Counted from the stretch's first letter, positions 6,187 through 61,327 are shown. The stretch: 64,000 nucleotides of DNA from Pontiellaceae bacterium (GCA_044224855.1 JBGAJP010000003.1:27745-91744), one strand, 5' to 3'. The notes: generated by a model not told the origin, from the sequence alone. Program-made: numbers and translations.

Positions 6187-6192
6187 GGCACT

Positions 6193-44162: not shown

Positions 44163-44218
44163 TCAGTTTCCAAGTTTAAACTTCCGCAGTGTCCGCTGTC
44201 CGGATAAAATCCGCAACC

Positions 44219-44677
44219 ATGAAGAAGCCCGGAACGTTCCTGCTGTTTATCGTCATTGCGTTTCTGCCGTCAGTCAGCGCTGTTTTCGTGGAGACCGGCG
44301 GCTGGTATGCGGCGCTGAATAAGCCGTCCTGGAATCCGCCCGGCTGGCTTTTCGGTCCGGTGTGGTCGTGTCTTTATCTGATGATCGGGCTGGCGGGCTA
44401 TTTTGCATGGACGCGCGGCAGACCTGCCGAGCGGAGTGCTGTCTTTACTGTTTACGGCGCGCAGCTTCTGGTGAACGGACTCTGGAGCTGGATCTTTTTC
44501 GGCCTGCACCGGCCCGACTGGGCGATGGCTGATCTGCTGCTGCTCTGGTTTTTGATTCCGCTCTGCCTTTGGCTTTTCGCTCAACAAAGCCGGCCGGCGG
44601 CGTGGCTGATGTTTCCGTATTTCCTGTGGGTCTCGTTCGCCGGAGTGCTGAATGCGGCGATCTGGATGATGAACTGA
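44219..44677 (+). CDS. tspO: TspO/MBR tryptophan-rich sensory protein
   Basis: LNKPSWNPPGWLFGPVWSCLYLMIGLAGYFAW and five TM helices. Confidence 0.85.
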   Translation: MKKPGTFLLFIVIAFLPSVSAVFVETGGWYAALNKPSWNPPGWLFGPVWSCLYLMIGLAGYFAWTRGRPAERSAVFTVYGAQLLVNGLWSWIFFGLHRPDWAMADLLLLWFLIPLCLWLFAQQSRPAAWLMFPYFLWVSFAGVLNAAIWMMN

Positions 44678-44724
44678 TCGGATTTTTGCTTTCCGGAAAG
44701 CGGAGCTTCGGCTACTTTCCGCGC

Positions 44725-45477
44725 ATGGCCGTTAAACCAAATGCCGATTGGACTCCGGAGCTGGACAAAGAAAACGACAAAGCCGTCTGGGTGCATGTCA
44801 TCCCGTATCTGGCATGGCTGTTGATGATGTCTTTGCTGGGCGATCCATCCGGAACGCGCTACGCCATTCAGACCGTCGGCGGCATTATTCTCCTGCTGAT
44901 CTGCCGTCCGTGGCGCTGGTACACACCGCCGCAGCTCAAAAATATTCCGCTCGCGCTGGCGGTCGGTCTGCTGGTGTTTGTTTTCTGGGTCGGCCCGGAA
45001 TCCGAGTTTTTCAGAAGCGTCTTTCCAAAGATCAGCGAATTTTATGACCGGTATTTTGTTGAGCTGATCCGGCTCGGGGACCTGCGCCAGCCGCTGGAGC
45101 TGGGTGCCAACGGACTTCACCACTATGATCCGCGAACCACCGGCTGGCCGCTTTTCTGGGTGCATATGTTCGGCACCACCGTGATCATCGGCGCCATCGA
45201 AGAGTTCATGTTCCGCGGGTTTCTCTACCGCTGGATGCAGGGCAGCCCCTTCTTTAAGAAAGACATCGGCGCGATGGACTCGAAAATGTGCATCCTTGTC
45301 GCCGTGCTCTTTGCGCTCGAGCACAACGAATGGCTGATGGGCTTTCTCTGCGGACTTTTCTTCACCTGGCTGATGGTCAGAACCCGCGATATCTGGGCCG
45401 CCGTTCTGGCGCATGCCTTCACCAACGGCCTGCTCGGCTGGTACGCCGTCAAAACCGGCGCCTACTGGTTCTGGTAA
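44725..45477 (+). CDS. CPBP (CAAX protease / Abi) family intramembrane metalloprotease
   Basis: Motif 1 GAIEEFMFRGFLY, motif 2 FALEHN, motif 3 AHAFTNGL. Confidence 0.8.
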   Translation: MAVKPNADWTPELDKENDKAVWVHVIPYLAWLLMMSLLGDPSGTRYAIQTVGGIILLLICRPWRWYTPPQLKNIPLALAVGLLVFVFWVGPESEFFRSVFPKISEFYDRYFVELIRLGDLRQPLELGANGLHHYDPRTTGWPLFWVHMFGTTVIIGAIEEFMFRGFLYRWMQGSPFFKKDIGAMDSKMCILVAVLFALEHNEWLMGFLCGLFFTWLMVRTRDIWAAVLAHAFTNGLLGWYAVKTGAYWFW

Positions 45478-45571: not shown

Positions 45572-46093
45572 ATGAACGAACTGAAATTGATTGAACCTCT
45601 GATTCTGACTCTGCGAGGTCAGAAGGTAATTCTGGATACTGATCTTGCGGAGATTTACGGCGTGCCTACTAAGCGGCTCAATGAGCAAATTAAACGCAAT
45701 GCCGATCGGTTTCCCGAAGATTTTATGTTTCGCCTTACGGAAGCGGAGAAAAACGAGGTGGTCGCAAATTGCGACCACCTCCAGAAGCTCAAATTTTCTC
45801 CGCAATTACCAGCCGCCTTCACCGAACACGGCGCGATTATGGCGGCGACGGTGCTGAGCAGTCCGGAAGCTGTTGCGATGAGCGTGTTTGTGGTGCGGGC
45901 GTTTGTCCGGATGCGCGAACAGCTGGCCGCCAACGCGGCGATTCTCAAACGGCTGGCTGAAATTGATAAGACCCTGCTGGAACACGACCGGGCGCTGGGC
46001 GTGATCTGGGAACAGCTTCAGCCGCTGCTGGCTCCGCCGCCGGAGCCGCCCAAGCGGCAGATCGGGTTCGATTGCCACCGGAAAGATGAATGA
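45572..46093 (+). CDS. ORF6N (KilA-N-related) DNA-binding domain protein
   Basis: LRGQKVILDTDLAEIYGVPTKRLNEQIKRNADRFPEDFMFRLT is the ORF6N signature. Confidence 0.75.
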   Translation: MNELKLIEPLILTLRGQKVILDTDLAEIYGVPTKRLNEQIKRNADRFPEDFMFRLTEAEKNEVVANCDHLQKLKFSPQLPAAFTEHGAIMAATVLSSPEAVAMSVFVVRAFVRMREQLAANAAILKRLAEIDKTLLEHDRALGVIWEQLQPLLAPPPEPPKRQIGFDCHRKDE

Positions 46094-46201
46094 CAGCAAA
46101 GGCTTTCGCCGCAAAATTCACCAAGTTAAGGAGTGTAAAAAACTGCTGAATTTGGTCTTCTTGAAGCACAATAGCCGCCGCAGAGCGGTCAGGAGGACTC
46201 T

Positions 46202-47395
46202 ATGGGAAAATGGATGCTGGGCTTGATGGTTGCAGCGATAGCTGCCGGCGGATATGGCAACGACTGGCCGGTTTGGCGAGGTCCAGATAATAACGGAATT
46301 TCAAAAGAGACCGGCTGGGATCCCAGGAGTGCCAAAAAACTCTGGACGAAGGAACTGGGCGACGGCTACTCATCGGTCAGCGTCAAAGACGGCCGGCTTT
46401 ACACGACCGGGTTTTCATCCGGCGCTGACAAGGCGGGCAAAGACACGGTTTATTGTCTCGATGCAAAAACCGGAAAAGAAATCTGGAGCCACTCGTATCC
46501 CAGTCAGTCCGGATCGTACAAGGGTCCGCGCGCCACGCCGGTTTGTGACGGCGACGTGGTTTATATGTTCAGCCGCGAAGGTCTGCTGATCTGTCTCGAC
46601 GCCGCTTCCGGCAAAGTGAAGTGGGAAACGGATGTACTCACCGGAACCGGCAACCAGAACATTAAATGGGGGCTGTCCTCCTCTCCGGTTGTTGAAGGCG
46701 ACCTGATTCTGCTTAACGTTGGTTCCACCGGAACGGCCGTTGACAAAAACAGCGGCAAAATCAAATGGAAGAGCGCCGGAACCTCCGGTTACGCCTCGCC
46801 GGTAGTCTTTGATTTCAAAGGCAAACGCTGCGCCGCGATCTTTTCAGCGCCCGGTCTTCAGGTGGTCGATGTCAAAACCGGCGGTAAGATCAGCTCCTTT
46901 AACTGGGAAACCAAATACGACGTCAACAGCGCCGACCCGCTGGTTATCGGCGATCGGATCTTCATCTCTTCCGGTTACGCCCGCGGCTGCGGCATGCTCG
47001 ATTTTTCCTCCGGCGAACTGAAACCGGTGTGGGAAAACAGCCTGATCAAAGCGCATTTCGGCAGCAGTGTCTGTATCGACGGGTTCATCTACGGTGTCGA
47101 CGGACAGGCTAAAGGAAAAGGCCCGCTGCGCTGTGTTTCCGCCGCTGACGGTTCCGAGCAGTGGAACGCGCCGGTCAACTTCGGCTCGCTGATGGCCGCC
47201 GACGGCAAGCTGATTGTACTCGGCGAAGACGGAACACTTATCTTCGCGGATGTCTCTGCCGAAAAATATACCGAGATTTCCAGAATGGACACCGGAATCG
47301 GCCCGCTCTGCTGGACCGCGCCGGTATTGGCGAACGGCATCATCTACTGCCGCAATGACAAGGGAACGCTCGTCGCGATCGATGTCAGCAAATAA
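46202..47395 (+). CDS. PQQ-like beta-propeller repeat protein, paralog P1 (secreted)
   Basis: AGGAGG RBS and a signal peptide. N-terminal motif NDWPVWRGPDNNG, followed by repeated blade-like units such as VKDGRLY, GDVVYMF and CLDAKTGKEIW. Confidence 0.8.
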   Translation: MGKWMLGLMVAAIAAGGYGNDWPVWRGPDNNGISKETGWDPRSAKKLWTKELGDGYSSVSVKDGRLYTTGFSSGADKAGKDTVYCLDAKTGKEIWSHSYPSQSGSYKGPRATPVCDGDVVYMFSREGLLICLDAASGKVKWETDVLTGTGNQNIKWGLSSSPVVEGDLILLNVGSTGTAVDKNSGKIKWKSAGTSGYASPVVFDFKGKRCAAIFSAPGLQVVDVKTGGKISSFNWETKYDVNSADPLVIGDRIFISSGYARGCGMLDFSSGELKPVWENSLIKAHFGSSVCIDGFIYGVDGQAKGKGPLRCVSAADGSEQWNAPVNFGSLMAADGKLIVLGEDGTLIFADVSAEKYTEISRMDTGIGPLCWTAPVLANGIIYCRNDKGTLVAIDVSK

Positions 47396-48077
47396 GACAC
47401 TCCTGATCTGCCGCTGCGCCGGGCGCCGCCTGCTTAAACAGGAGGCGCTCGAACCGCTTTTGCGGCAGGACGGGGCGGTTACGGTTCCCGATCTCTGTCA
47501 GGCCGCCGCTGCAAAAGACCCGGTTCTTGGGCAAATCGCCGGCGCGGAATTTCCGGTCGTTTGCGCCTGCCATCCGCGCGCGGTTCGCGCGCTCTTTGCG
47601 TTTGCCGGGTTTCCGCTTCCGCAAAACACGGAATTTATAAACCTTCGCATTTCATCCGGCGGTTCATCCGTTCAATCGGATGCCGCCTGGTATCCGGTCA
47701 TAGACGAAAACCGCTGCACGAACTGCGGGCAGTGTTTCGAGTTCTGCCTTTTCGGTGTCTATGAAAAGAATTCCGCCGGGAAAGTCCGCGTGGTGAATCC
47801 GCACAGCTGCAAAAACAACTGTCCGGCCTGTGCCCGGATCTGTCCCGCCGCCGCCATTATTTTCCCCAAAGTCGGCGAAGCGCCGATCAACGGCGCAGAA
47901 ATTTCCGACGAGGAAGCCCTTAAGGCGAACATCAAAATCAACGTCGACGAAATTCTTGGCGGCGATGTTTACGCCGCGCTGAATGCCCGCAAACAGAAGC
48001 GCCGCTCGCTGCTCGATCAAAAGAAAATCGAGCAGGCGCTGGCGGAGCGGAAGAAATGTTCGGAGGGCAGCGTATGA
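47382..48077 (+). CDS. 4Fe-4S dicluster ferredoxin-domain protein with a Cys-rich N-terminal domain
   Basis: CTNCGQCFEFC and CKNNCPACARICP. The start at MSANKT overlaps the end of P1 by 14 nt. Confidence 0.7.
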   Translation: MSANKTLLICRCAGRRLLKQEALEPLLRQDGAVTVPDLCQAAAAKDPVLGQIAGAEFPVVCACHPRAVRALFAFAGFPLPQNTEFINLRISSGGSSVQSDAAWYPVIDENRCTNCGQCFEFCLFGVYEKNSAGKVRVVNPHSCKNNCPACARICPAAAIIFPKVGEAPINGAEISDEEALKANIKINVDEILGGDVYAALNARKQKRRSLLDQKKIEQALAERKKCSEGSV

Positions 48078-49267
48078 GCGCCACGTTGATGAAACGGATG
48101 CTGACCGAGCCGGACAAGCGACTGCTGTGGAAGTTCGCCTATAACTTCGGCTTTAAAGGAATGCGCTCCATCGAAAAATTCCAGAAGCGCCTCAAGCGCG
48201 GCGAATATTTCCCGGCCTTTTTATTTCTGTCGGTCACCAACGCCTGCAATCTTGCCTGTCAGGGATGCTGGGTGTCACAAACCAATCCGCCCAAACAGAT
48301 CGCGCCCGGAACGCTTGATAACGTCATCACCGAATGTAAGGCGCAGGGTTCCTGTTTCTTCGGTATCCTCGGCGGCGAACCGCTGCTCTATGACGGCCTC
48401 TTCAAGGTTTTCGAAAAACATCCCGACTGCTATTTCCTGCTCTTCACCAATGGCACGATGATCACAGACGCGGTCGCGAAAGAGATGCGGCGTATCGGCA
48501 ACATCAGTCCGCTCATCAGCATCGAAGGGCTTGAGGAAGTCAGCGACGTGCGCCGCGGCGGAAACAAGGTGTATGAACAGACGCTGGCGGGACTGGCTAA
48601 CTGCCGCGCGAACCGTCTGGTTACCGGTGTCTGCACCAGCGTCTGCAAATCCAACATCGACGACCTGGCTACCGAAAAGTTCGTGAACGATGCCGCCGCG
48701 TTCGGCGCGCACTATCTCTGGTATTACATCTACCGCCCGGTCGGACCGAATCCGTCGCCGGAACTCGCGCTTGACGCGGAACAGATCACCCGCCTGCGCC
48801 GCTTCATCGTCGATATCCGCCTCACAGCGCCGCTGGTGGTGGTTGACGCCTACTGGGACGATAAAGGCCGGGCGCTCTGCCCGGCGGCAGTCGGCATCGC
48901 CAATCACGTCAGTCCTGACGGTTATATCGAACCGTGCCCGCCGCTTCAGTTCGCCAAGGACAACATCGGCGACGGAACCGGGCTCTACGACCTTTTCAAC
49001 CATTCCGAATTTCTCGCTGACTTCCGCCGGATGTGCTGCAAAACCACGCAGGGCTGCATCATCATGGAACATCCCGATCAGCTCGCGGACTTTATCAAAC
49101 GCGAAGATGCGGTCGACAGCTCCGGGCGCGGCACGCTGCTGGCCGAGCTTGGCCGGACGTGTCCTTGCGGCAGCCACCATCAGCCCGGCGAAGAAATTCC
49201 GGAGCGCAGTTGGGCCTACCGTTTTGCGAAGAAAAACTGGTTTTTCGGTTTCGGAGCGTACGGGTGA
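48074..49267 (+). CDS. Radical SAM protein, subfamily not recognised
   Basis: SVTNACNLACQGCW (CX3CX2C) and GGEPLL. C-terminal Cys-rich region. ATGA overlap with the ferredoxin gene. Confidence 0.8.
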   Translation: MSATLMKRMLTEPDKRLLWKFAYNFGFKGMRSIEKFQKRLKRGEYFPAFLFLSVTNACNLACQGCWVSQTNPPKQIAPGTLDNVITECKAQGSCFFGILGGEPLLYDGLFKVFEKHPDCYFLLFTNGTMITDAVAKEMRRIGNISPLISIEGLEEVSDVRRGGNKVYEQTLAGLANCRANRLVTGVCTSVCKSNIDDLATEKFVNDAAAFGAHYLWYYIYRPVGPNPSPELALDAEQITRLRRFIVDIRLTAPLVVVDAYWDDKGRALCPAAVGIANHVSPDGYIEPCPPLQFAKDNIGDGTGLYDLFNHSEFLADFRRMCCKTTQGCIIMEHPDQLADFIKREDAVDSSGRGTLLAELGRTCPCGSHHQPGEEIPERSWAYRFAKKNWFFGFGAYG

Positions 49268-50790
49268 TGAAACAGACGGCGGCAAAATACGGAGTTCCGA
49301 CGGAACGGTTCGAACGCGAGCAGCTCATGCTCGCAGTTTCCCGGTATGCCGCGGAACATCAGCTGGTGCCGCCGCTCTCGATAGAAGAACTGCGCGATCA
49401 CGCCGGAAATATTGCGGCCGATCCGGGCCTGATCGACTATGTGATGGTGCTGCTCAACAACGAAGTCTGGCGCGAAACAGTCGCTTCCATTCCGTACGAA
49501 CGCCGCCTGCTTCTTCTTCCGCAATGCCTGCGCGACATTCAAGCCTGTCCGGCCAAACTCGATGAGTTCGGCCTGCTCTGCGAAGAGTGCGGACGGTGCA
49601 ATATCGGCGGACTTCAGGCTCTCGCCGAAGAACTGGGTTACGTCGTACTGATCGCCGAAGGCTCAACGGTCGTTTCCAGACTGCTGGAAGGCGGCAAGGT
49701 CGATGCGGTCATCGGCGTCAGCTGCCTCGCCGCGCTGGAAAAATCTTTTTCGCGCATGGCGGATGGTGCCATTCCCGGTCTCGCGATTCCGCTGACCGTT
49801 GATGGCTGCGCCGGAACTGAAATAGACGTCGAGCATGTCCGCGATGCGATCAAACTGAAATCTTCCGCACCGTGGAAAAACACGCTCGATACCGCCCGTC
49901 TGCACGAAGTCGTCGACGGATGGTTTTCCGCCGTCGGCGATTGGAATACGGAAACCCGTACCGGCCAGATCGCCTGCGAGTGGCTGCTCAAAGACGGCAA
50001 GCGCTGGCGTCCGTATCTGCTGGCTTGCACCTACAGCGCGCTCAACGGCGGCACAACGGAACTGCCCGACGAAGTCCGCCGCCTCGCCATTGCCGTCGAA
50101 TGTTTTCACAAAGCTTCGCTTATTCACGATGACATCGAAGACGGCGACGACCTGCGTTACGGCGAGCCTGCGCTTCACCGTCAATACGGACTTGCCGTTG
50201 CCATCAACGCCGGCGACCTGCTGGTCGGCGAAGGCTACCGCTGGATCGCTTCCGTCGAAACCCGTACCGCCGAACTGCTGCGTATTGCCGCAGAAAATCA
50301 CCGTACTCTCTGCCTCGGGCAGGGCGAGGAACTCTACGGTCTTGCGAACGGAACAGCGTTTACCGCGAAAGAGATCATTGAAATTTTCCGGCGCAAAACC
50401 GCGCCGGCTTTCGGCGCGGCGCTTCTGCTCGGCGCCGTCGCTGCCGGAGCGGACCGCGCGCTGCTCGAAACGCTCCAGTCTTTCAGCGAATCGCTTGGTA
50501 TCGCCTACCAGATCCGCGACGATCTCGAAGAATACAAATCCGGCGAAGCACGCGACCTGCGTGCTTCGCTGCTGCTCGCGCTGGCCAATGACCATTCGCC
50601 GGCGCTCCGGCTGACCGCTGAAACCGCGCAGTTGAGCCACCTCTTTGATGAACTGATGATTCCAGAAAAAGCGGCGCAGCTGCTGGAGCACTATAAAAAC
50701 GAAGCGGTCCGCGCACTGAACCCGCTGAAAAACGCGTTGCTCAAAAGTCTGCTCCGGCGGGTTGCCGCTAAAATGCTGGGCGGAGGATGA
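49267..50790 (+). CDS. Fusion of a DUF116-like Cys-rich domain and a trans-polyprenyl diphosphate synthase
   Basis: The N-terminal half has LPQCLRDIQACP...LLCEECGRCNIGG. The C-terminal half has GKRWRP, FARM LIHDDIEDGDDLR, KTAPAF, and a variant second Asp-rich motif IRDDLEE. Confidence 0.75.
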   Translation: MKQTAAKYGVPTERFEREQLMLAVSRYAAEHQLVPPLSIEELRDHAGNIAADPGLIDYVMVLLNNEVWRETVASIPYERRLLLLPQCLRDIQACPAKLDEFGLLCEECGRCNIGGLQALAEELGYVVLIAEGSTVVSRLLEGGKVDAVIGVSCLAALEKSFSRMADGAIPGLAIPLTVDGCAGTEIDVEHVRDAIKLKSSAPWKNTLDTARLHEVVDGWFSAVGDWNTETRTGQIACEWLLKDGKRWRPYLLACTYSALNGGTTELPDEVRRLAIAVECFHKASLIHDDIEDGDDLRYGEPALHRQYGLAVAINAGDLLVGEGYRWIASVETRTAELLRIAAENHRTLCLGQGEELYGLANGTAFTAKEIIEIFRRKTAPAFGAALLLGAVAAGADRALLETLQSFSESLGIAYQIRDDLEEYKSGEARDLRASLLLALANDHSPALRLTAETAQLSHLFDELMIPEKAAQLLEHYKNEAVRALNPLKNALLKSLLRRVAAKMLGGG

Positions 50791-50794
50791 CGCC

Positions 50795-51574
50795 ATGGAA
50801 TCTCTGGCCGACCGCCTGATTCACGCCGCCGCCTGCTCCCGCCGGTTTCTGGAACAGGAATCGCGCAGTCAAATCGCCCGCTTCATTCTCAGCCGGCAGA
50901 ATTCTGACGGCGGGTTTCGAGGAAAAAGCGCGGAGAGCGATCTCTACTATACGGTTTTTGCTGCGGCCGGGCTGAAGGCGCTCGGCTGGCGTATTCCGGC
51001 ATGGTCGCTTTGGAAATACATCAGGCAGTTCGGTTCGGGCGAAGAGCTCGATCTGGTTCATCTGTTCTGTCTGATCCGCTTGCGCGCAGCTTTTCCGATG
51101 ACGGGTAAAACGAGGCGTCAGCTTTTCCGGAACATGGAAGAACTGCCTGCGGACTCAGCTTATGATTTTTTCCTGAAACAGCTGTCCGGGGATTGCCTGG
51201 GAATCGCCCGTCTGCCGGTTGCGCCGCGACCCGTTTCGCTTACGGATCCGACGCCGAATCTCGCGGCGGCGATCGTCGTCAACCGGACCGAGGGGAAAGT
51301 CGCCGCCGGGGTATTGCTCAATCGGATTTGCAGTTCCGGCGGCTTTGCCGCAACGGATCAGCTGAATTCCGCCGACCTGCTGTCCACCGCTACGGCGCTG
51401 TTTGCGCTGAGGATTCTCCATGCGGATCTCGATCCGGTCCGCCGCCCGTGTATGGAATTTATCGAATCGCTCTGGCGCGACAGCGGCGGCTTCGCCGGAC
51501 ATGTAACGGACGAATTCGAAGACGTCGAATACACCTTCTACGCGCTGCTCAGTATCGGATGTTTAATGGAATGA
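50795..51574 (+). CDS. Prenyltransferase/squalene-oxidase repeat protein (protein-prenyltransferase beta-subunit-like alpha-alpha toroid)
   Basis: Repeated QNSDGGFRG, SSGGFAA and DSGGFAG motifs across 259 aa. Confidence 0.7.
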   Translation: MESLADRLIHAAACSRRFLEQESRSQIARFILSRQNSDGGFRGKSAESDLYYTVFAAAGLKALGWRIPAWSLWKYIRQFGSGEELDLVHLFCLIRLRAAFPMTGKTRRQLFRNMEELPADSAYDFFLKQLSGDCLGIARLPVAPRPVSLTDPTPNLAAAIVVNRTEGKVAAGVLLNRICSSGGFAATDQLNSADLLSTATALFALRILHADLDPVRRPCMEFIESLWRDSGGFAGHVTDEFEDVEYTFYALLSIGCLME

Positions 51575-51648
51575 TTTGCCGGATCCACGCCGGGTACGGC
51601 TGAGTTCCGGCAGTACTGGTAAAGCCGGACCTGAAAGTTCCGGCTTAT
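51573..51648 (+). repeat. REP-family element copy 3 (left flank of the RAYT gene)
   Basis: gatttgccggatccacgccgggtacggctgagttccggcagtact (45 nt identical to 52332-52376), then the hairpin aagccggacctgaaagttccggctt. Confidence 0.85.
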
Positions 51649-51714
51649 GGGTTGGAATGGTAAAGCCTGAGCTTAGCGCGAAGCGCGTAGCCCCGGCTTC
51701 AAATGGAGAGAAGG

Positions 51715-52329
51715 ATGGAAAATACAGTGAAGTTCTTCCGGCGGAACCTGCCTCACTGGCTGGTGTCAGACCGGTCATACTTCGTTACCATCCGTTTGCA
51801 TGGAACACTTCCGCAAACCGTTGTGCGGACTTTTCAGGAGGAGCGGGATCGTCTGGATGCTTCCTCGCCCGAGCTTATGGATTTACAGCGCAGACAGTTT
51901 TTGCAGTTGGAGAAAATGCTGGATGCGTGCGAAGCGGGGAGTGCTTGGCTGGCGAATCCTGATATTGCCGCCATGGTTTTGGAAAACCTGGATTGGCTTC
52001 GCGCGGAACGCGGATGGCGGATTTATGCCGGAGTCGTGATGCCAACGCATCTGCATTTACTGATGCGCAGTGAGGACGAACGATCCGGCGATCTCCTGAA
52101 TGATCTGGCTCATTTTAAACGCTTTTCAGCGAGCAAAGCGAATCAGATGCTGGGACGAACCGGGCCGTTCTGGGCGAGGGAACATTTTGATCATTGGATT
52201 CGAAACCGGGGAAAATTCGAAGGAACGGTTCGGTATATTCTAAACAATCCGGTGAAGGCCGGATTGGCGGCAGACTGGCGGGAATGGCCGTGGTATTGTC
52301 TGGATGACTCAATTCGGGAACTGGTTTGA
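51715..52329 (+). mobile_element. REP-associated tyrosine transposase (RAYT, IS200/Y1-type HUH)
   Basis: FFRRNLPHW, HUH motif PTHLHLLM, and C-terminal catalytic-Tyr context VRYILNNPVKAGL. Flanked by REP copies. An alternative ATG lies at 51703. Confidence 0.85.
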
Positions 52330-52331
52330 AA

Positions 52332-52409
52332 GATTTGCCGGATCCACGCCGGGTACGGCTGAGTTCCGGCAGTACTTTAGTAAAGCCGGAACTTTTAGGT
52401 CCGGCTTAT
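52332..52409 (+). repeat. REP-family element copy 4 (right flank of the RAYT gene)
   Basis: Same 45-mer, then the hairpin aagccggaacttttaggtccggctt. Confidence 0.85.
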
Positions 52410-52411
52410 GA

Positions 52412-54064
52412 ATGGTGAAAATGGGTATCGAGAAAGAACAGATTAAAACTGCGCTGGCTTCTTCGCGGAAGACGCTACTGGCCGGGCTGACGCCGGAAGG
52501 CCGGTGGGAAGGCGAGCTGTCGAGTTCCGCGCTGGCGACAGCGGTGGCTTCGTTTGCGCTGAAGACCTCTGGGAAAACAGATCTGGCGGAACGCGGGTTC
52601 CAATGGCTGAAAACTCATCGCAACGCTGACGGCGGCTGGGGCGACAGTCCGGAGAGTCCGAGCAACTTTACAACGACACTGCTTTGCCGCTGTGTGCTGG
52701 ACGAAGAGGTCGGTACGCCGGAAGAAGTTGTCCGAGCGATTCTCGAACATTATGGTGATGACCGCACTTTCTCCGTTCCGATCCTGACGATGTGCATGCT
52801 TGCGGGAAAGCTGGGCGACGACTGGTCGGTTGTTCCGCAGCTTCCGTTCGAGCTGGCGATATTTCCGCACCGTTTCTACAAATTTCTCAGGCTTCCAGTA
52901 GTCAGCTATGCGTTGCCCGCGCTGATTGCGATCGGCCTGGTGCGGCATGTCAGCCGTCCGGCCCGGCTTTCCTTTGTCCGGCAGCGGATCATTCCGCGTG
53001 CGCTGAATATTCTGCAGAAGATCCAGCCCGAAAGCGGCGGCTACCTCGAAGCCGCGCCGCTGACCGGTTTCGTGGCGATGAGTCTGATGGCGGCGGGATA
53101 CGGCGATCATCCGGCGGCGCAGTCGTGTTTCCGGTTTCTGGAAAACACGGTGCGCGCAGACGGCAGCTGGCCGATCGACGTTAACCTCTCCTCGTGGGTG
53201 ACGTCGCTGGCGGTCCGCGCGCTGGACGACCGTCTTTCCGATGAACAGAAGGAGCGCATCCGGTCATATCTGCTGGAGAATCAGTGGAAAGAGGAGCATC
53301 CGTTCACTCATGCCGCGCCCGGCGGCTGGGGCTGGACGTATGAAAAGGGCGGAGTTCCCGACGCCGACGATACGGCCGCCGCGCTGATCGCGCTTCACCA
53401 TTTGGAGTGCGATACGGAGACGGCTGAAAAGGGAATCCACTGGCTGTTGGATTTGCAGAACCGCGACGGCGGGATGCCGACGTTCTGCAAGGGCTGGGGA
53501 AAGCTGCCGTTCGACCGCAGCTGTCCGGATCTGACGGCGCACATGATCCGCGCATTTATGGCATGGCGCGGAGCTGTCGGTTCCGGACTTGCTGTAAAAA
53601 TGAAACACTCGATCCTCCGGGGGTTGCGTTATCTAAAGAAACAGCAGCGCGCCGACGGTTCGTGGCTTCCGCTCTGGTTCGGCAGTCAGGCCGATCCGAA
53701 GCATGAAAATCCGGTTTACGGAACGGTGCGTGTGCTGGAAGCGCTGCGCGAACTGGATGAGAACGAGTTTCCGGTTTCCGGGGAAATGAAACGGCGCGGG
53801 TTTCAATGGCTGGAGACTGCGCAGAATCCGGACGGCAGCTGGGGAAGTTCGGTCGAGGAGATGGCGCTGGCGGCGGGGCTGACGGGGAAAGGGTTTGAGC
53901 GGTTGCTGGAAATGACGGAGAGCGGAACGAAATTTCCGGCGGCACCGATCGGATTGTATTTTGCGAGCCTGTGGTATTCGGAGAAAATGTACCCGCTGAT
54001 CTTTACGGTCGAGGCGCTTCAAAGATACACTCCGGAATTTGAACAGGAAGGCGGCAGAAAATGA
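52412..54064 (+). CDS. Squalene-hopene-cyclase-family class II terpene cyclase (short, 550 aa)
   Basis: PGGWGWTYEKGGVPDADDTAAAL contains the DxDDTA motif. QW-like repeats RNADGGWG, QNRDGGMP, QRADGSW and QNPDGSWG. The order of C-terminal segments parallels A. acidocaldarius SHC as I recall it. Confidence 0.8.
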   Translation: MVKMGIEKEQIKTALASSRKTLLAGLTPEGRWEGELSSSALATAVASFALKTSGKTDLAERGFQWLKTHRNADGGWGDSPESPSNFTTTLLCRCVLDEEVGTPEEVVRAILEHYGDDRTFSVPILTMCMLAGKLGDDWSVVPQLPFELAIFPHRFYKFLRLPVVSYALPALIAIGLVRHVSRPARLSFVRQRIIPRALNILQKIQPESGGYLEAAPLTGFVAMSLMAAGYGDHPAAQSCFRFLENTVRADGSWPIDVNLSSWVTSLAVRALDDRLSDEQKERIRSYLLENQWKEEHPFTHAAPGGWGWTYEKGGVPDADDTAAALIALHHLECDTETAEKGIHWLLDLQNRDGGMPTFCKGWGKLPFDRSCPDLTAHMIRAFMAWRGAVGSGLAVKMKHSILRGLRYLKKQQRADGSWLPLWFGSQADPKHENPVYGTVRVLEALRELDENEFPVSGEMKRRGFQWLETAQNPDGSWGSSVEEMALAAGLTGKGFERLLEMTESGTKFPAAPIGLYFASLWYSEKMYPLIFTVEALQRYTPEFEQEGGRK

Positions 54065-55386
54065 AAAACGCATGGCTTTATATCGCAGTCGGGTTTGCAT
54101 GGTTTACAACGGCATTTGCCGGCGACTGGCCGCAGCTTGGCGGCCCGGCCCGAAACAATATTTCAACCGAAACCGGGCTGGCGGATTCGTGGCCGTCGTC
54201 CGGTCCGAACGTGCTGTGGGAAAAAACCGTATCCGACGGGTATTCCGGACCGACGATTAAAGACGGCAAAATCTATCTGATTGATCACGAGGGCGACGAC
54301 AGCATTCTCCGCTGCCTGGCGCTGAGCTCCGGAGAGGAAATCTGGAATTATTCTTTCAGCGATCCGGGTAAAATGAGCGGCGGAAAATTTGCCGGAACGC
54401 GCGGTAATCCGACGGTGACGGATGATGCTGTTTATCTGGTCACGGGCCATGGAACGTTTATTTGCATGGATCTCCGGACGCGGCAGGTGAAGTGGATGCA
54501 CCATCTGCTGAAAGATTATGGAAACAAACTGCACCAGTTCGGCGTTGTGCAGGCTCCCTTTATCTATAAAAACATGGTTCTGGTCGCGCCCAACACCAAA
54601 GAAGCCGGTGCCGCTGCATACGACACGACAACCGGCGAGAGGTTGTGGGTCTCGTCCGGTCTGGGCGATCACGCCTATATCACGCCGCAGGTTGTCGAAT
54701 TCTGCGGACAGGAAATGGTTCTGGCGGTTGGATCCAAGCAGGAGACGCCGAAACCGCGCAGGCGGCAGCCGGGTGCCGGCCCGGAGGAACCGGTCGCGCC
54801 GCCGATGGCCGGGCACATAACGGGGCTTTCGCTGAAAGACGGTTCAGTTCTGTGGGATTACACCGGCTGGCAGTGTGACAGCGCGATTCCCGCGCCGGTG
54901 CTGTTGAGCGACAATCGTCTGTTTATCACGGGCGACTACGGTGCCGGTTCAGCCATGATTCAGGTGGTGAGGGACGGCCCCGGTTTTGCGGCCAGGGAAA
55001 TTTACAAGACCGACGCGGTCGGCGCGCAGCTGCAGCCGCCTATTCAGGTCGGAGACCATTTCTTCATCGGCAGCAACGGGAACGGACGGAAAGACGGATT
55101 AGTCTGCTTCAGCCTCGACGGGAAGCTGGAGTGGCGGACAAAAGATATAGAAGGCGCACCCAATTTTGAGCGCGGTCCGTTTATTCTAGCCGACGGAAAA
55201 CTGATTCTGCTCGATGGCAAGAGCGGGATTCTCTATCTCGTGAAAGCAGACGCTTCCGGTTACAAACAGCTGGCCGCGGCTCAGATGGTGAAGGAAAACA
55301 GCATGGCCTGGGCTCCGCTTGCGCTTTCCGGCGGCAAACTGCTCGTCCGTGACTGGAACACGTTGAAGTGTGTTGATTTGAAATAA
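54061..55386 (+). CDS. PQQ-like beta-propeller repeat protein, paralog P2 (secreted)
   Basis: ATGA overlap with the cyclase stop. Signal peptide and motif GDWPQLGGPARNN. Internal Pro/Arg-rich insert KPRRRQPGAGPEEPVAPP. Confidence 0.8.
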   Translation: MKNAWLYIAVGFAWFTTAFAGDWPQLGGPARNNISTETGLADSWPSSGPNVLWEKTVSDGYSGPTIKDGKIYLIDHEGDDSILRCLALSSGEEIWNYSFSDPGKMSGGKFAGTRGNPTVTDDAVYLVTGHGTFICMDLRTRQVKWMHHLLKDYGNKLHQFGVVQAPFIYKNMVLVAPNTKEAGAAAYDTTTGERLWVSSGLGDHAYITPQVVEFCGQEMVLAVGSKQETPKPRRRQPGAGPEEPVAPPMAGHITGLSLKDGSVLWDYTGWQCDSAIPAPVLLSDNRLFITGDYGAGSAMIQVVRDGPGFAAREIYKTDAVGAQLQPPIQVGDHFFIGSNGNGRKDGLVCFSLDGKLEWRTKDIEGAPNFERGPFILADGKLILLDGKSGILYLVKADASGYKQLAAAQMVKENSMAWAPLALSGGKLLVRDWNTLKCVDLK

Positions 55387-55436
55387 TAGGGGATACTCAG
55401 CTCCGCGGTAACAGCGGCAAGACGGCTAAATTCCGA

Positions 55437-55484
55437 AAAAATGTACCCCTTGATCTTTACGGTCGAGGCGCTTCAAAGATACAC
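55437..55484 (+). repeat. Copy of the last ~48 nt of the cyclase gene (53984-54031), placed upstream of paralog P3
   Basis: aaaatgtacccNNtgatctttacggtcgaggcgcttcaaagatacact matches at 46 of 48 positions. It contains the stem atcttt/aaagat. Confidence 0.85.
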
Positions 55485-55535
55485 TGCGCGTACTCAGAGT
55501 TATCCATAAGGATTTAAACAGAAAGGCCGCAGAAA

Positions 55536-56864
55536 ATGAACAAAGCTGTGATTTGTGCAATGGCGGGACTCACGTTGTTTTCACAGGCATTTGCTGCCGA
55601 CTGGCCGCAGTTTTGCGGTCCGGACCGGAACAATACTTCTGCTGAAACCGGGCTGGCCCGGAGCTGGCCTGCTGCCGGTCCCGACGTGCTGTGGACCGCA
55701 AACGTCACAAGCGGGTATGCCGGTCCTGCCGTTAAAAACGGCGCGGTGTATCTGCTGGAGCACGACGGAGTCCGCAGCAGCGTCCGTGCGCTGGAGCTCG
55801 GTTCCGGCAAAGAACTCTGGATCTGTTCATTTGATGATCCCGGATCGGTGGATAAAAAGTATCCGGGTACCCGCGGTACGCCCACGGTAACGGACGATTC
55901 GCTGTATGCTGTGACACTTCTCGGCACAGTGGTCTGCGTGGATTTGAAATCTCATCAGATAAAATGGCAGCACAACCTGACTAAGGATTATGGCAAGAAA
56001 CGGGGTGGCTGGGGAGTTGCTCAGTCGCCGGTGCTGGTTGATGACCTGGTAATTATCGCGCCGCTGACGGAAACCGGAAGCCTCGTGGCTTTGAACAAAA
56101 ATTCCGGCAAGGAAGTCTGGAAAGTAGCCGGATTTCCCGGCGACGGGTTCGTTTCGCCGGCGATGATTTCCATCGACGGGGAGGATCAGATTCTTATGGT
56201 GGCGGGCGGATCAAAGCCCGAGAAGCCGCCTCGCCGCGCAAAAGATGCCGACGCGGAAGACGAGGCGCCAAAAGGAAAGCAGCGCCCCACGTATGTTTTT
56301 GCCGTTTCGCCGAAGGACGGCAGGGTGCTTTGGAGCTATGAGGGATGGTCCTGCAGCAACCCGATCCCACATCCGGTTCCGGCGGGCGCAAACACGCTGT
56401 TTATCACGTCCGGGTACAAAGCCGTTTCTTCACTGCTCAAGGTGGAGAAAAAAGCCGACGGTTATGAAATCAAAGAACTGTTTAAAACCGAAAGCGCGGC
56501 GACACAGATTGAGCAGCCGGTTTTTGCAAACAACCATCTGTTTGTCGGCGGCACAACGAAAAGCGCCCGGCGGGGACTCGTCTGCATGGATCTGGAAGGA
56601 AACGTAAAGTGGGAGAGCAGCAAGGTTGAAGGCTCTCCGGCGTTCAATGATCTTAATATGATTGCCGCCGACGGAATGCTGATCGGCCTCGATGGCGATT
56701 CCGGGAAACTGTATCTGATCGACGCGACACCCAAGGCCTTCAAGGCGCTCGCGGCCGCCACCGTTCTGCCCGAAAAAGGCCAAACCTGGGCGCCGATTGC
56801 TTTGTCGGACGGCAAACTGCTTGTCCGGGATCACACGGTGATGAAGTGCCTCAACCTGAAATAA
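55536..56864 (+). CDS. PQQ-like beta-propeller repeat protein, paralog P3 (secreted)
   Basis: Signal peptide and motif ADWPQFCGPDRNN. Collinear with P2, with an insert KPPRRAKDADAEDEAPKGKQRP at the same position. Confidence 0.8.
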   Translation: MNKAVICAMAGLTLFSQAFAADWPQFCGPDRNNTSAETGLARSWPAAGPDVLWTANVTSGYAGPAVKNGAVYLLEHDGVRSSVRALELGSGKELWICSFDDPGSVDKKYPGTRGTPTVTDDSLYAVTLLGTVVCVDLKSHQIKWQHNLTKDYGKKRGGWGVAQSPVLVDDLVIIAPLTETGSLVALNKNSGKEVWKVAGFPGDGFVSPAMISIDGEDQILMVAGGSKPEKPPRRAKDADAEDEAPKGKQRPTYVFAVSPKDGRVLWSYEGWSCSNPIPHPVPAGANTLFITSGYKAVSSLLKVEKKADGYEIKELFKTESAATQIEQPVFANNHLFVGGTTKSARRGLVCMDLEGNVKWESSKVEGSPAFNDLNMIAADGMLIGLDGDSGKLYLIDATPKAFKALAAATVLPEKGQTWAPIALSDGKLLVRDHTVMKCLNLK

Positions 56865-56878
56865 ATTTTGCTGAATGC

Positions 56879-58324
56879 ATGCGTCGCATGAAACAGAAAA
56901 CAGCCAGTCTGCTGACAGCGGTACCCGTTCTTGTTCTATGCGGGGGTCTCGCCGCTTTTCTGCTCGCGCGCTGGTTTGCGTATGATCCGGCGCGCGGGCT
57001 GGCGCGCAGCCTGCCCGGTATGGACGGCAGTCCTGCCGGATCGAAACAGGCGGGCGCGAGCGACTTGAAGGTTGATCTGGCCGGAACGCTTGAAAAGTTC
57101 GACGGCGTACCGTCCAGTCTGCCCGGCTCGTGGCCGCGCTTTCGCGGTCCGGATTTTGATAACATCTATAAAGCCGGTGTGAAGCTGGCGGACAGCTGGC
57201 CGGAGTCCGGCCCGGAAATTCTCTGGTCGGTTGCGCTGGGCGAAGGCCACGCCGCGCCCGCCGTTTTCAACGGCTGCGTCTATCTGTTCGACTACGACGA
57301 GCAGAAGCGTTCTGACGCGCTGCGCTGTTTTTCGCTGGCCGACGGCAAAGAAATCTGGCGGCACTCCTACATACTGCCCGCCAAGCGGAACCATGGACTT
57401 TCACGAACCATTCCGGCGGTCACCGAAGACTGCATCGTGACGATCGGTCCGCGCTGCCACGTTTCATGTGTCGAAACCGCGACCGGCAAATTCCGCTGGG
57501 GGATTGATCTGCAAAAGGAGTATGGCACTACGGAACCGCTGTGGTTTACCGGACAATGTCCGCTGATCGATGAAGGCCGCGCGATTCTTGCGCCCGGCGG
57601 GCCCGACGTCCTGCTGATGGCAGTTGACTGCAAAACCGGCGCTGTCATTTGGAAGACGCCGAATCCGGGCGGCTGGAAAATGTCGCACTCATCCGTTATG
57701 CCGCTGACGCTTCACGGCGAAGCCATGTATGTTTACGCCGCGGTCGGCGGCATGGCCGGCATTTCCAAAGACGGAAAACTCCTGTGGCAGATTCCCTGGA
57801 GCGCCTCGGTGATCGCTCCGTCACCGGTTCCGGTTTCCGGAAACCGGATTTTCATCACCGCCGGTTACGGCGCGGGCAGTCTGATGGTACAGATCGACAA
57901 GACTGCTGACGGCTTTACCGCAAAAGAAGTTGCGCGCACCGGCCCGCAGGACTGGCTGGCGAGCGAACAGCAGACGCCGGTTCTGCACGACGGCCTGCTT
58001 TATGGAATCATGCCGAAAGACGGCGGTGCGCTGAAACAGCAGTTCGTCTGCTACGATCCGGCCGGCGGACTGGTCTGGTCGAGCGGCAAAACGAGTCGCT
58101 TCGGACTCGGCCCGTTCCTGCTGGCCGACGGAAAGTTTTTTATATTGGACGACGACGGCACATTAACCATGCTGGCCGTTAGCCGGGACGGATATAAACA
58201 GCTCGCGCAGCACAAGGTGCTGGACGGACACGATGCCTGGGGGCCGATCGCCATCGCCGGAACCCGAATGCTCCTGCGCGATTCGACCCGGATGGTCTGT
58301 ATTGAAACCGGAGTTAAAAAATGA
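56879..58324 (+). CDS. PQQ-like beta-propeller repeat protein, paralog P4 (N-terminal TM anchor)
   Basis: TM helix LLTAVPVLVLCGGLAAFLLA and motif GSWPRFRGPDFDN. Confidence 0.8.
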   Translation: MRRMKQKTASLLTAVPVLVLCGGLAAFLLARWFAYDPARGLARSLPGMDGSPAGSKQAGASDLKVDLAGTLEKFDGVPSSLPGSWPRFRGPDFDNIYKAGVKLADSWPESGPEILWSVALGEGHAAPAVFNGCVYLFDYDEQKRSDALRCFSLADGKEIWRHSYILPAKRNHGLSRTIPAVTEDCIVTIGPRCHVSCVETATGKFRWGIDLQKEYGTTEPLWFTGQCPLIDEGRAILAPGGPDVLLMAVDCKTGAVIWKTPNPGGWKMSHSSVMPLTLHGEAMYVYAAVGGMAGISKDGKLLWQIPWSASVIAPSPVPVSGNRIFITAGYGAGSLMVQIDKTADGFTAKEVARTGPQDWLASEQQTPVLHDGLLYGIMPKDGGALKQQFVCYDPAGGLVWSSGKTSRFGLGPFLLADGKFFILDDDGTLTMLAVSRDGYKQLAQHKVLDGHDAWGPIAIAGTRMLLRDSTRMVCIETGVKK

Positions 58325-59271: not shown

Positions 59272-59897
59272 AAACGGCCGGAAGACGGGATTTTATTAAA
59301 AACCTCGCACGAGGCGCAGTGCTGGCCTGTATCGCCGGAGTCTGCGGCATACTGATTTCGCGGAAAAATAAATATCAATGCAACGGGCGCTGCGGTACGT
59401 GCAAACCTGCCAACGGCGGGGCGTGCCCGATGGGATCATCCGGATTCGTCTGGCAGATTGACCCGGAGAAATGCACCCAGTGCGGACGCTGCGCCACGCA
59501 TTGCGTACTGGCGCCGTCGGCGGTGAAGTGCTTTCACTCCTATTCCATCTGCGGCTATTGCGATCTATGCGGCGGCTATCTGCGTCCCGATGCTAAAGAG
59601 CGCAATACCGGAGCGGAAAACCAGCTCTGTCCGACGGCGGCTATTCGCCGGAAATTCATTGAGGATCCTTATTACCAGTACACCATTGACGAAAAGCTCT
59701 GCATCGGTTGCGGCAAATGCGTGAAGGGCTGCGGTATGTTCGGCAACGGTTCGCTTTATCTTCAGGTCAAACATGACCTTTGCGTTAATTGCAACGAATG
59801 CGCCATCGCCCGCGCCTGTCCGTCCGGTGCCTTCCGGCGTGTGCCTGCCTCCGATCCCTATCTGCTGAAATCCAACAAGGAACGGAGAATCAGCTGA
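59268..59897 (+). CDS. NapG-like Tat-signal poly-ferredoxin (periplasmic 4Fe-4S protein)
   Basis: Twin-arginine motif GRRDFIKNLARGAVLA. Cluster motifs CTQCGRCATHC, CGYCDLCGG, CIGCGKCVKGC and CVNCNECAIARAC. Confidence 0.7.
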   Translation: MKTAGRRDFIKNLARGAVLACIAGVCGILISRKNKYQCNGRCGTCKPANGGACPMGSSGFVWQIDPEKCTQCGRCATHCVLAPSAVKCFHSYSICGYCDLCGGYLRPDAKERNTGAENQLCPTAAIRRKFIEDPYYQYTIDEKLCIGCGKCVKGCGMFGNGSLYLQVKHDLCVNCNECAIARACPSGAFRRVPASDPYLLKSNKERRIS

Positions 59898-61320: not shown

Positions 61321-61327
61321 GTGGTGT

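Follow-up and report, generated by a model that had tools for sequence, protein, structure and literature searches.

A five-gene module lies on the + strand of the 64,000-nucleotide stretch of Pontiellaceae DNA analysed here (the window). It encodes a ferredoxin, a radical SAM enzyme, a DUF116-polyprenyl diphosphate synthase fusion, a single-domain alpha/alpha-toroid protein and an SHC-like cyclase, with overlapping junctions. The sequence suggests that the module represents, in Kiritimatiellales, an uncharacterised operon of wide occurrence that makes a cyclic isoprenoid from its own polyprenyl diphosphate, not from squalene; we hold this reading with about as much confidence as doubt. The domain identities, the intact catalytic motifs and the linkage conserved across phyla are direct observations. 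All module genes of the preliminary description, including the radical SAM and ferredoxin genes upstream of the fusion, were recovered at the same positions (Table 1).

Table 1. Features of the module and its surroundings, in window positions.
Feature	Position	Strand	Evidence or remark
PQQ_2 beta-propeller with signal peptide	46202..47395	+	translationally coupled to ferredoxin gene
Ferredoxin, 231 aa	47382..48077	+	Pfam Fer4 families, two 4Fe-4S motifs
Radical SAM enzyme, 397 aa	48074..49267	+	PF04055, 57 bits; CxxxCxxC
DUF116-polyprenyl diphosphate synthase fusion, 507 aa	49267..50790	+	PF01976 + PF00348
DUF116 domain, residues 54-195	49426..49851	+	PF01976, 128 bits
Polyprenyl synthase domain, residues 240-426 (Pfam match)	49984..50544	+	PF00348, 142.9 bits vs cutoff 27
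FARM DDIED	50128-50142	+	Ala(-5)/Ser(-4)
SARM DDLEE	50518-50532	+	synthase domain
Alpha/alpha-toroid protein ("PTb"), single-domain, 259 aa	50795..51574	+	PF00432, 46 bits
Left copy of duplicated ~80-nt segment with REP-like hairpin	51569..51649	.	repeat comparison
REP-associated tyrosine transposase (RAYT)	51703..52329	+	NF047646, 83.9 bits vs cutoff 80
Right copy of duplicated REP-like segment	52328..52410	.	repeat comparison
SHC-like class II terpenoid cyclase, 550 aa	52412..54064	+	PF13249 + PF13243 (Pfam)
VPDADDTA motif of cyclase	53360-53377	+	motif scan
PQQ_2 beta-propeller paralogue 1	54061-55386	+	overlaps cyclase stop codon
PQQ_2 beta-propeller paralogue 2	55536-56864	+	Pfam
PQQ_2 beta-propeller paralogue 3	56846-58324	+	Pfam
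NHL-repeat protein	58321-59271	+	overlaps TAT-ferredoxin gene
Ferredoxin with twin-arginine signal	59268-59897	+	overlaps both neighbours
NapH/NosR-like membrane polyferredoxin	59897-61270	+	third gene of overlapping trio

Relatives were found in at least 597 species genomes, in Planctomycetota, Verrucomicrobiota, Kiritimatiellae, Lentisphaerae, Acidobacteriota, Bacteroidota, Hydrogenedentes and Sumerlaeota. Linkage was counted over the 54 loci with complete flanks. The DUF116-synthase fusion was present in 44 of these, from several phyla, the ferredoxin in 41, and a radical SAM gene in 37 (29 of the module type, 8 with a B12-domain replacement). At least 36 encoded the toroid protein; the cyclase had no partner genes nearby in nine. 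The usual order was ferredoxin, radical SAM, DUF116-synthase, toroid and cyclase, with overlapping stop and start codons. Because the identical gene order is repeated in different phyla, the arrangement is far above chance.

Between the toroid and cyclase genes of the window sits a RAYT gene, overlooked in the preliminary description, with duplicated segments at either side. The REP-like hairpin pattern occurred in the window at the two flanking sites only (chance expectation 0). Two relatives, L001 and L005, have no RAYT here, and their toroid and cyclase genes lie directly side by side. The RAYT gene is an insertion that does not belong to the module.

Alignment to SHC of A. acidocaldarius showed that the acid machinery of the cyclase is complete: D317-A-D319-D320-T-A, H377 and Y436 correspond to D374/D376/D377, H451 and Y495, and equivalents of W312 and F365 are also retained. 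Among 24 homologues, D317, D319, D320, T321 and H377 were invariant, the aromatic lining was kept, and position 436 was Tyr, or Phe in a few. The DxDDTA motif reported earlier was confirmed, as were the QW-like repeats, four of which are clear. The protein is indeed shorter than SHC (550 aa vs 631 aa in A. acidocaldarius); as a family trait, however, the shortness is confined to the Kiritimatiellales/Pontiellaceae lineage, whose cyclases have ~516-573 aa because they miss two loops of the orthologues from other phyla (556-642 aa).

The cyclase scored 97.1 bits against TIGR01507 (SHC; curated cutoff 431.1) and 117 bits against TIGR01787 (cutoff 322.7). These scores support the view that it is not an ordinary SHC and falls outside the curated SHC and OSC families. 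In a profile comparison with the PDB, the scores were 131 bits for SHC, 61 for OSC, 57 for DMS and 32 for ent-CPS; judged by these matches, it is nearer SHC/OSC than diterpene cyclases. Public annotations of family members read "squalene--hopene cyclase" or "sporulenol synthase". Along with the DxDDTA and QW motifs and the top PDB match to SHC, they would suit an ordinary, slightly truncated squalene-hopene cyclase that receives squalene from elsewhere, the synthase giving FPP and the other genes being unrelated. We regard this as highly improbable. The scores reach only one quarter to one third of the curated SHC cutoffs, the five-gene synteny extends across phyla, and the module is present in Bacteroidota, from which SHC is reported to be nearly absent. 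Moreover, the clade has been presented as separate and unassigned in two papers (PMC7306690, PMC12324236).

A six-frame motif scan of the 64 kb (cruder than an HMM scan), combined with reading of ORF translations, revealed no squalene/phytoene-synthase signature in the window, which upholds the earlier observation. The scan found one DxDDTA and one genuine FARM only. No SQS-like family was found among the neighbour families recurring in at least 7 of 87 loci, and no additional family was widespread among the conserved neighbours. Likewise, the window and the recurring neighbour families contained no hpn genes, and the association with hpnCDE/sqs and hopanoid tailoring genes that marks an SHC was not seen there. 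The earlier proposal of a polyprenyl rather than a squalene substrate is supported in part, by cyclase scores far under the SHC cutoffs, by the dedicated synthase in 44 of 54 loci, by the lack of SQS in the window, by the invariant class II acid motif and by the non-squalene precursor suggested for the clade in print. SHC-type enzymes are promiscuous, and squalene from elsewhere in the genome may therefore still serve as substrate.

The FARM of the fusion reads ECFHKASLIHDDIED. All of 30 homologues had DDxxD with Ala at -5 and Ser at -4, and a FARM insertion was absent. The SARM, DDLEE, has the family-wide form DDxx(D/E). Both motifs were as first described. Conserved residues of the synthase are D288/D289/D292, R297, Q352, K377/T378, D418/D419 and E/D422, so that the fusion carries the set typical of trans-polyprenyl diphosphate synthases (FARM DDx2-4D, SARM DDxxD, Arg, Lys and Gln). 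Against the NCBIfam chain-length models it scored 102 (FPPS), 97 (GGPPS), 82 (HepT) and 54 (OPPS). Short-chain profiles thus outscored long-chain ones, every equivalog being far below its cutoff. Ala/Ser before the FARM is also found in type-III GGPP synthases (C20), and the rule would say no more than that chain growth does not have to stop at C15. The earlier prediction of products longer than C15 would hold as regards the missing cap, but the profile scores favour short-chain families. Judged by sequence, the product would have at least C20.

The N-terminal Cys-rich domain was verified as DUF116. It contains seven invariant Cys (C87, C94, C105-x2-C108-x2-C111, C153 and C181), and the same seven are invariant in stand-alone DUF116 proteins. 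Its AlphaFold model had a pLDDT of 79.7, and no structural match in the PDB fell under E = 0.07. Both domains were present in 118 of the best 120 fusion homologues. Among the best 150 DUF116 cluster representatives, about two thirds were 440-690 aa long, and 5 of 5 tested were fusions. In a Bipolaricaulota cluster, DUF116 adjoins IspH, SHC, a radical SAM enzyme and a polyprenyl synthase. These co-occurrences tie DUF116 to polyprenyl synthases.

The ferredoxin consists of an N-terminal domain with conserved Cys (CxC...DLC...C) and a C-terminal 2x[4Fe-4S] part. The N-terminal domain matched no family in Pfam or NCBIfam and is a separate ORF in other phyla. The radical SAM enzyme has C58-x3-C62-x2-C65, three further invariant Cys in its C-terminal third (C268, C287 and C328) and a conserved aromatic C-terminal tail; its gene overlaps both neighbours. 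Matches to NirJ, AhbC, AhbD, SkfB and HpnH were weak and all far under the cutoffs. Assignment as HpnH (TIGR03470) was rejected at 36.7 bits against a cutoff of 225. The closest solved relative was the thioether-forming SkfB (E = 1e-12).

Two electrons are needed for the reductive head-to-head coupling of prenyl chains, and low-potential redox proteins abound in the operon. Squalene synthase might be replaced by these Fe-S and radical proteins: DUF116, the ferredoxin-fed radical SAM enzyme or both would couple two FPP or GGPP chains reductively, and the tail-to-tail hydrocarbon (squalene or a C40 analogue) would then be cyclised to a triterpenoid-like lipid. We know of no precedent for such a reductive coupling enzyme, and neither DUF116 nor the radical SAM enzyme shows any likeness to the SQS/PSY fold. 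The better scores of the synthase against short-chain families would suit such coupling, but Ala/Ser before the FARM disfavours an FPP-specific synthase. A cyclase profile nearest SHC, the failure to find a canonical squalene synthase nearby and the "triterpenoid" type ascribed in print to the clade's gamma domain also agree with it, whereas the sister clade is described as using head-to-tail substrates. Coupling is, in our view, unlikely.

The AlphaFold model of the toroid protein had a pLDDT of 91.8 and 12 helices. Foldseek matched it best to the monodomain cyclase 8pak (TM 0.6) and MstE (0.55), with RabGGTase-beta behind them (0.36-0.43), and its sequence also matches RabGGTase-beta. The earlier label "prenyltransferase-beta-like" is borne out by the PF00432 match, but the fold is at least as near single-domain class II cyclases. 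At the DxDD position the protein reads D194-L-L-S-T, in which the first Asp alone survives, and the catalytic DxD/DxDD acid of an MstE-like single-domain class II enzyme was not found in the cavity. A role as protein prenyltransferase beta subunit was rejected as well. No invariant Cys or His that could form the Zn-binding Asp/Cys/His triad was seen in 16-40 homologues, homologue alignments revealed no conserved basic diphosphate-binding residues, and neither the window genes nor the characterised neighbour families included a recognisable TPR-type alpha subunit. The toroid protein probably acts as a binding or partner subunit and as neither of the known enzyme types.

The PQQ_2 gene upstream of the module, which the ferredoxin start overlaps by 14 nt, is a lineage-specific accessory. 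Apart from the window, 19 related loci have PQQ_2 paralogues close to the cyclase gene. The NHL/TAT-ferredoxin/NapH trio adjoins the module in 7 further loci, among them one of a Parabacteroides genome. A second set, mutually exclusive with this trio, comprises an LplA-like ligase, an IscS/DndA-like cysteine desulfurase, a GcvH-like protein and a CobW GTPase. About one third of loci carry it; the window and the majority of loci do not. The modifiable Lys of the GcvH-like protein (E-x-x-K-A) was kept in 13 of 13 sequences.

The encoding of this second set in the same operon raises the possibility that the product is a prenylated or thiolated protein or cofactor and not a free lipid. The toroid proteins would hold the prenyl chain, and a C-S bond would come from the radical SAM enzyme together with the cysteine desulfurase; the GcvH-like protein, through its Lys arm, would be the acceptor or a sulfur or electron carrier. 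We consider this distinctly improbable. SkfB as nearest solved relative and the match of the toroid to a prenyltransferase Pfam family are in keeping with it; however, the accessory genes are missing from most loci, the toroid protein lacks Zn ligands and conserved basic residues, and the invariant, complete Bronsted-acid site of the cyclase would be pointless for simple prenyl transfer.

For the dedicated polyprenyl-diphosphate route, we infer the order of steps as follows. Starting from an allylic primer, the synthase half of the fusion would add IPP units until an all-trans polyprenyl diphosphate is formed. The DxDD/His/Tyr acid cluster of the cyclase would protonate the terminal double bond, and the head-to-tail chain, or its dephosphorylated or modified form, would be cyclised. 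The cyclase would probably act jointly with the co-translated toroid protein. Excess substitutions on the SHC-type dimer surface have been reported for the stem of the clade; such changes would be in keeping with a new partner, for which the toroid protein is a candidate. The radical SAM enzyme, and possibly the seven-Cys DUF116 domain, would receive electrons from the ferredoxin, and these two could carry out reductive or radical tailoring of the chain or the cyclised product. The scheme does not say what exactly the toroid protein, DUF116 and the radical SAM enzyme do, and it leaves the LplA-like/IscS-type/GcvH-like/CobW additions in one third of loci unaccounted for.

Compared with the SHC/hpn pathway, the module shares the two-domain beta-gamma class II fold, DxDDTA, the H451/Y495 equivalents, the aromatic cavity, QW repeats and a radical SAM enzyme within the locus. 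It differs in that the cyclase fails the curated SHC models, HpnC, D and E are absent from the window and the recurring neighbour families, the radical SAM enzyme is not HpnH, the synthase is fused to DUF116 and an additional toroid protein is present. The Bacillus HepS/HepT-YtpB-SqhC route resembles the proposed one in its logic, a dedicated polyprenyl synthase and an SHC-type cyclase for a head-to-tail chain. The analogy to it drawn in the preliminary description did not hold: no class-I-type YtpB-like or HepS-like partner was identified among the window genes and the recurring, characterised neighbour families, and the Bacillus route has no counterpart to the Fe-S and radical partners. The toroid protein shares the 12-helix alpha/alpha toroid with MstE and Cystobacter fuscus 8pak but has kept the first Asp alone from the acid motif; it differs from prenyltransferase beta subunits in lacking Zn ligands, an alpha subunit and conserved basic residues.

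The epoxy-polyprenyl cyclases Lon15, AtoE, Bra4 and PlaT2 are reported to act on head-to-tail C20-C40 substrates, some of them diphosphate-bearing. They open an O2-made epoxide, whereas the module's family retains the alkene-protonating DxDD. This family presumably also occurs in anaerobes, given the physiology of Kiritimatiellales and Marinifilum. By description, the window cyclase fits the published "SHC-like"/"unknown function" clade: the likeness lies in the PVC/FCB/Acidobacteriota spread, the catalytic residues and the non-squalene context. Kiritimatiellales cyclases stand at or under the lower limit of the clade's 550-700 aa because of the two deleted loops. [quoted passage not shown] 2020 (PMC7306690). 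In their accessible main text, the cyclase is treated by itself, no function is reported, and the DUF116 fusion, radical SAM enzyme, ferredoxin, toroid protein and accessory sets do not appear. New to this picture are a defined five-gene core, a seven-Cys DUF116 domain for which the PDB gave no structural homologue, and two accessory sets that exclude each other.

The five genes of the module, which encode a ferredoxin, a radical SAM enzyme, a DUF116-polyprenyl synthase fusion, a small single-domain alpha/alpha-toroid protein (toroid protein) and an SHC-like cyclase, are embedded in a single co-directional 17-kb array on the + strand (46202-63046), in which most junctions overlap or nearly abut. 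A promoter-like site at 46090-46117 was the sole informative result of a promoter/terminator scan. The genes named in the preliminary description are present; however, it overlooked a transposase gene inside the operon that separates the toroid gene from the cyclase gene. Duplicated segments of ~80 nt (49 nt at 98% plus 31 nt at 84% identity) lie on both sides of the transposase gene, the whole unit spanning 51569-52410. Each segment contains a hairpin of the form AAGCCGGAnCTnnnAGnTCCGGCTT, a pattern with no further occurrence elsewhere in the window. In close relatives, by contrast, the toroid and cyclase genes abut. Pairing of the nearby TspO/MBR and CPBP/Rce1-like genes with prenyl metabolism was suggestive; neither gene recurred with the module in other loci, and both were dropped as module partners.

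Features of the module and its surroundings (window coordinates)
Feature	Position	Strand	Remarks
TspO/MBR gene and CPBP/Rce1-like 'CAAX' protease gene	44189-45477		2-3 kb upstream of module; TspO: PF03073, 150 bits
Five PQQ_2 beta-propeller paralogues	starts 46202, 54061, 55536, 56846, 61328	+	in array
Ferredoxin, 231 aa	47382-48077	+	two 4Fe-4S motifs; Cys-bearing N-terminal domain
Radical SAM enzyme, 397 aa	48074-49267	+
DUF116-polyprenyl synthase fusion, 507 aa	49267-50790	+	DUF116 residues 54-195; synthase residues 240-426
Toroid protein, 259 aa	50795-51574	+	prenyltransferase alpha/alpha-toroid family match
REP-associated tyrosine transposase gene	51703-52329	+	NF047646, 83.9 bits (cutoff 80)
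SHC-like cyclase, 550 aa	52412-54064	+	both squalene-hopene-cyclase domains

The best homologues of the cyclase (79-90% identity) were from Kiritimatiellaceae, Pontiellaceae and Pontiella, and the public names of its homologues disagree ('squalene--hopene cyclase', 'sporulenol synthase', 'prenyltransferase/squalene oxidase repeat-containing protein'). The motifs quoted earlier were all recovered: VPDADDTA (53360-53377) and four clear QW-like repeats in the cyclase, and the first and second Asp-rich motifs (FARM, KASLIHDDIED; SARM, DDLEE) in the synthase. D317, D319, D320, T321 and H377 were invariant in 24 cyclase homologues, down to 53% identity, and Y436 was Tyr, or Phe in a few. The acid residues align with D374, D376, D377, H451 and Y495 of SHC, and equivalents of W312 and F365 are also kept; judged from this alignment, the acid machinery is complete. 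The shortness of the cyclase is a lineage trait, since Kiritimatiellales-type proteins (~516-573 aa) lack two loops; the aligned orthologues of other phyla had 556-642 aa.

When the cyclase family profile was compared with PDB chains, SHC scored highest (131 bits), followed by lanosterol synthase (61), drimenyl diphosphate synthase (57), single-domain cyclases (49) and ent-copalyl diphosphate synthase (32). A class II diterpene cyclase was rejected because the scores against the last of these and against Rv3377c-type chains (28) were far weaker than that against SHC. The cyclase fell below the curated cutoffs of both the hopene cyclase model (97 vs 431 bits) and the squalene/oxidosqualene cyclase model (117 vs 322 bits). 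On these cutoffs and on genomic context an ordinary SHC was ruled out, and we consider this reading very improbable despite the rank of SHC among the PDB chains. A six-frame motif scan of the 64 kb, a coarse test with inspection of the ORF translations as its sole backing, revealed no squalene/phytoene-synthase signature, in agreement with the preliminary description, and no second cyclase or second synthase.

Relatives of the cyclase were found in at least 597 genomes in a scan that took one genome per species. Planctomycetota, Verrucomicrobiota, Kiritimatiellae, Lentisphaerae, Acidobacteriota, Bacteroidota (Marinifilum, Parabacteroides), Hydrogenedentes and Sumerlaeota were among the relatives listed. 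Genes within 8 kb of the cyclase were counted in the 54 loci with full flanks. The DUF116-synthase fusion was present in 44 of these, the ferredoxin in 41, the toroid protein in at least 36 and a radical SAM enzyme of the window type in 29; in eight others a B12-domain type replaced the latter. Nine loci had a cyclase without a nearby synthase or toroid gene. The prevailing gene order was ferredoxin, radical SAM enzyme, DUF116-synthase fusion, toroid protein and cyclase, and the toroid stop codon frequently overlapped the cyclase start. No other evidence argues as strongly as this conserved linkage for a cyclase that uses what its own synthase makes.

The FARM, R297, Q352, K377/T378 and the SARM (DDxx[D/E]) are conserved in the synthase, and from these motifs the enzyme should be active. 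Its FARM is preceded by Ala(-5)/Ser(-4) and has no insertion, a combination predicted to lift the usual C15 cap. Type-III GGPP synthases and long-chain enzymes alike have the Ala(-5)/Ser(-4) pattern. Profile scores were higher for FPPS (102), IdsA (102) and GGPPS (97) than for HepT (82) and OPPS (54), every score being far under its cutoff. We predict a product of C20 or longer; as the sequence evidence conflicts, with profile scores that favour short-chain families, we assign no narrower class.

Seven Cys residues of DUF116 (C87, C94, C105-x2-C108-x2-C111, C153 and C181) were invariant in fusions and stand-alone members. In the AlphaFold model (pLDDT 79.7) the N-terminus is helical and the core Rossmann-like, and confidence is low for the Cys loop; a Foldseek search of this fold against the PDB gave no match below E = 0.07 (TM ~0.25). 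With 987 cluster representatives in a set of 1.84 billion proteins, the family is small. Of its best 150 representatives about two-thirds have 440-690 aa, and all five tested were synthase fusions. We infer for DUF116 a putative redox role, based on a metal or Fe-S centre and directed at the substrate or product of the synthase. In a cultured Bipolaricaulota strain, a stand-alone DUF116 gene is clustered with genes for IspH, an SHC, an HpnH-annotated radical SAM enzyme and a polyprenyl synthase (bioRxiv 10.1101/2025.11.21.689855), a second, independent association of DUF116 with isoprenoid genes.

The model of the toroid protein is of high confidence (pLDDT 91.8), has 12 helices and matched 8pak, a single-domain class II cyclase (TM 0.6), and MstE (0.55), followed by RabGGTase-beta (0.36-0.43). 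Its acid position reads D194-L-L-S-T. In the homologue alignment the invariant residues were Asp/Glu and aromatics, with no invariant Cys, His or basic residue. On these features the toroid protein can be classed neither as a canonical cyclase nor as a canonical prenyltransferase, and we propose that it is a substrate-binding or partner subunit. A role in protein prenylation was rejected: the Zn triad is absent, and no alpha subunit was found among the window genes or the characterised neighbour families.

The radical SAM enzyme has a CxxxCxxC motif, a conserved aromatic C-terminal tail and extra invariant Cys residues in its C-terminal third, which suggest an auxiliary cluster. Its nearest solved relative is SkfB (E = 1e-12). 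Assignment as HpnH (37 bits vs cutoff 225) was rejected, as were NirJ, AhbC/D and PqqE (all 30-63 bits vs cutoffs of 225-650). In loci without the window-type enzyme its position is held by the B12-type enzyme of ~540-610 aa, the N-terminal domain of which is B12-binding-like (TIGR04013-like, 77 bits), as at 1161-2993 of relatives' locus L016 and also at L045, L054, L058, L065, L032, L057, L046, L068 and L081. The N-terminal domain of the ferredoxin (residues 1-105; 47382-47700; CxC ... DLC ... C), a separate gene in many genomes, had no family match in Pfam or NCBIfam and may represent a hitherto undescribed domain of Fe-S or redox type. With such enzymes beside the cyclase and no squalene synthase seen in the window, one can envisage that a squalene-like substrate is made by novel Fe-S/radical chemistry; we regard this as unlikely.

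Two accessory gene sets accompany the module, and they did not co-occur in any of the 87 loci. In about one-third of loci the operon is extended upstream by genes for an LplA-like ligase, an IscS/DndA-like cysteine desulfurase, a GcvH-like protein and a CobW GTPase (1798-6283 of locus L085; also L044, L010, L013, L070 and L076), and here the N-terminal Cys domain of the ferredoxin is a stand-alone ORF. This set was found in Planctomycetaceae, Tepidisphaeraceae, Akkermansiaceae, Vicinamibacterales, Bryobacteraceae and Hydrogenedentes. The GcvH-like protein retained the modifiable lysine (E-x-x-K-A) in 13 of 13 sequences. Prenyl-thiol modification of a protein or cofactor, with this protein at its centre, is improbable in our view; the window has the other set. 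That set, encoded in the same array, comprises secreted PQQ_2 beta-propellers, an NHL protein, a twin-arginine ferredoxin and a NapH/NosR-like membrane polyferredoxin; it is common to Pontiella, Lentisphaerales, a Parabacteroides and several unclassified MAGs, and the NHL-ferredoxin-NapH trio adjoins the module in seven other loci of different lineages. Either set could be a source of reducing power or sulfur.

The reading we prefer is a three-step pathway. The fusion would make an all-trans polyprenyl diphosphate; the cyclase and its toroid partner would protonate the terminal alkene and cyclise the head-to-tail chain, either unaltered or after modification; and the ferredoxin, radical SAM enzyme and DUF116 would carry out reductive or radical tailoring. 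We give this pathway an even chance and no better, mainly because the accessory sets are unaccounted for. Cyclised regular polyprenoids could be what orphan tricyclic terpane biomarkers derive from, and the geochemical literature links tricyclopolyprenols to these compounds (e.g. Schaeffer et al. 1994). In its fullest form the reading would make the module the pathway, long sought, by which organisms cyclise regular (head-to-tail) polyprenoids: a C25-C35 chain from the fusion would be folded by the cyclase and toroid partner into tri- to polycyclic polyprenols, a source of orphan biomarkers, with no need for squalene synthase or O2 and with new DUF116/radical SAM Fe-S chemistry on isoprenoid diphosphates. 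We think it unlikely that all of this holds. If it did, orphan biomarkers in sediments such as the extended tricyclic terpanes (cheilanthanes), whose biosynthetic pathway is uncharacterised in the literature, would have a source in widespread bacteria of the PVC, FCB and Acidobacteriota groups. A cyclised head-to-tail polyprenoid would be a new class of bacterial membrane lipid, might supply biomarkers of the cheilanthane type, and would offer a first clue to the function of DUF116, whose small seven-Cys family has no structural homologue.

A literature search for characterisation of the operon or a demonstrated function found no such paper. As far as we could find, no earlier description exists of the defined module, its seven-Cys DUF116 partner or the two accessory sets; the cyclase clade itself is already known. 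A clade of the same distribution and properties is described in Santana-Molina et al. 2020 (PMC7306690) and in a 2025 preprint (PMC12324236). The former named it 'SHC-like', noted that planctomycete members keep the catalytic residues, and suggested from genomic context a non-squalene precursor; the same idea in the preliminary description is thus a rediscovery of one already in print. According to the preprint, the function of the clade is undemonstrated, and surplus substitutions along its stem lie on the SHC-type dimer surface. The 'odd cyclase' is now a defined set, in which its own synthase, radical SAM enzyme, ferredoxin and toroid partner travel together in hundreds of species. The hopane and sterane fossil record rests on type II terpenoid cyclases, of which specialists regard this clade as the chief unassigned branch, and its substrate would help settle the evolution of epoxide versus alkene substrates (PMC12324236).
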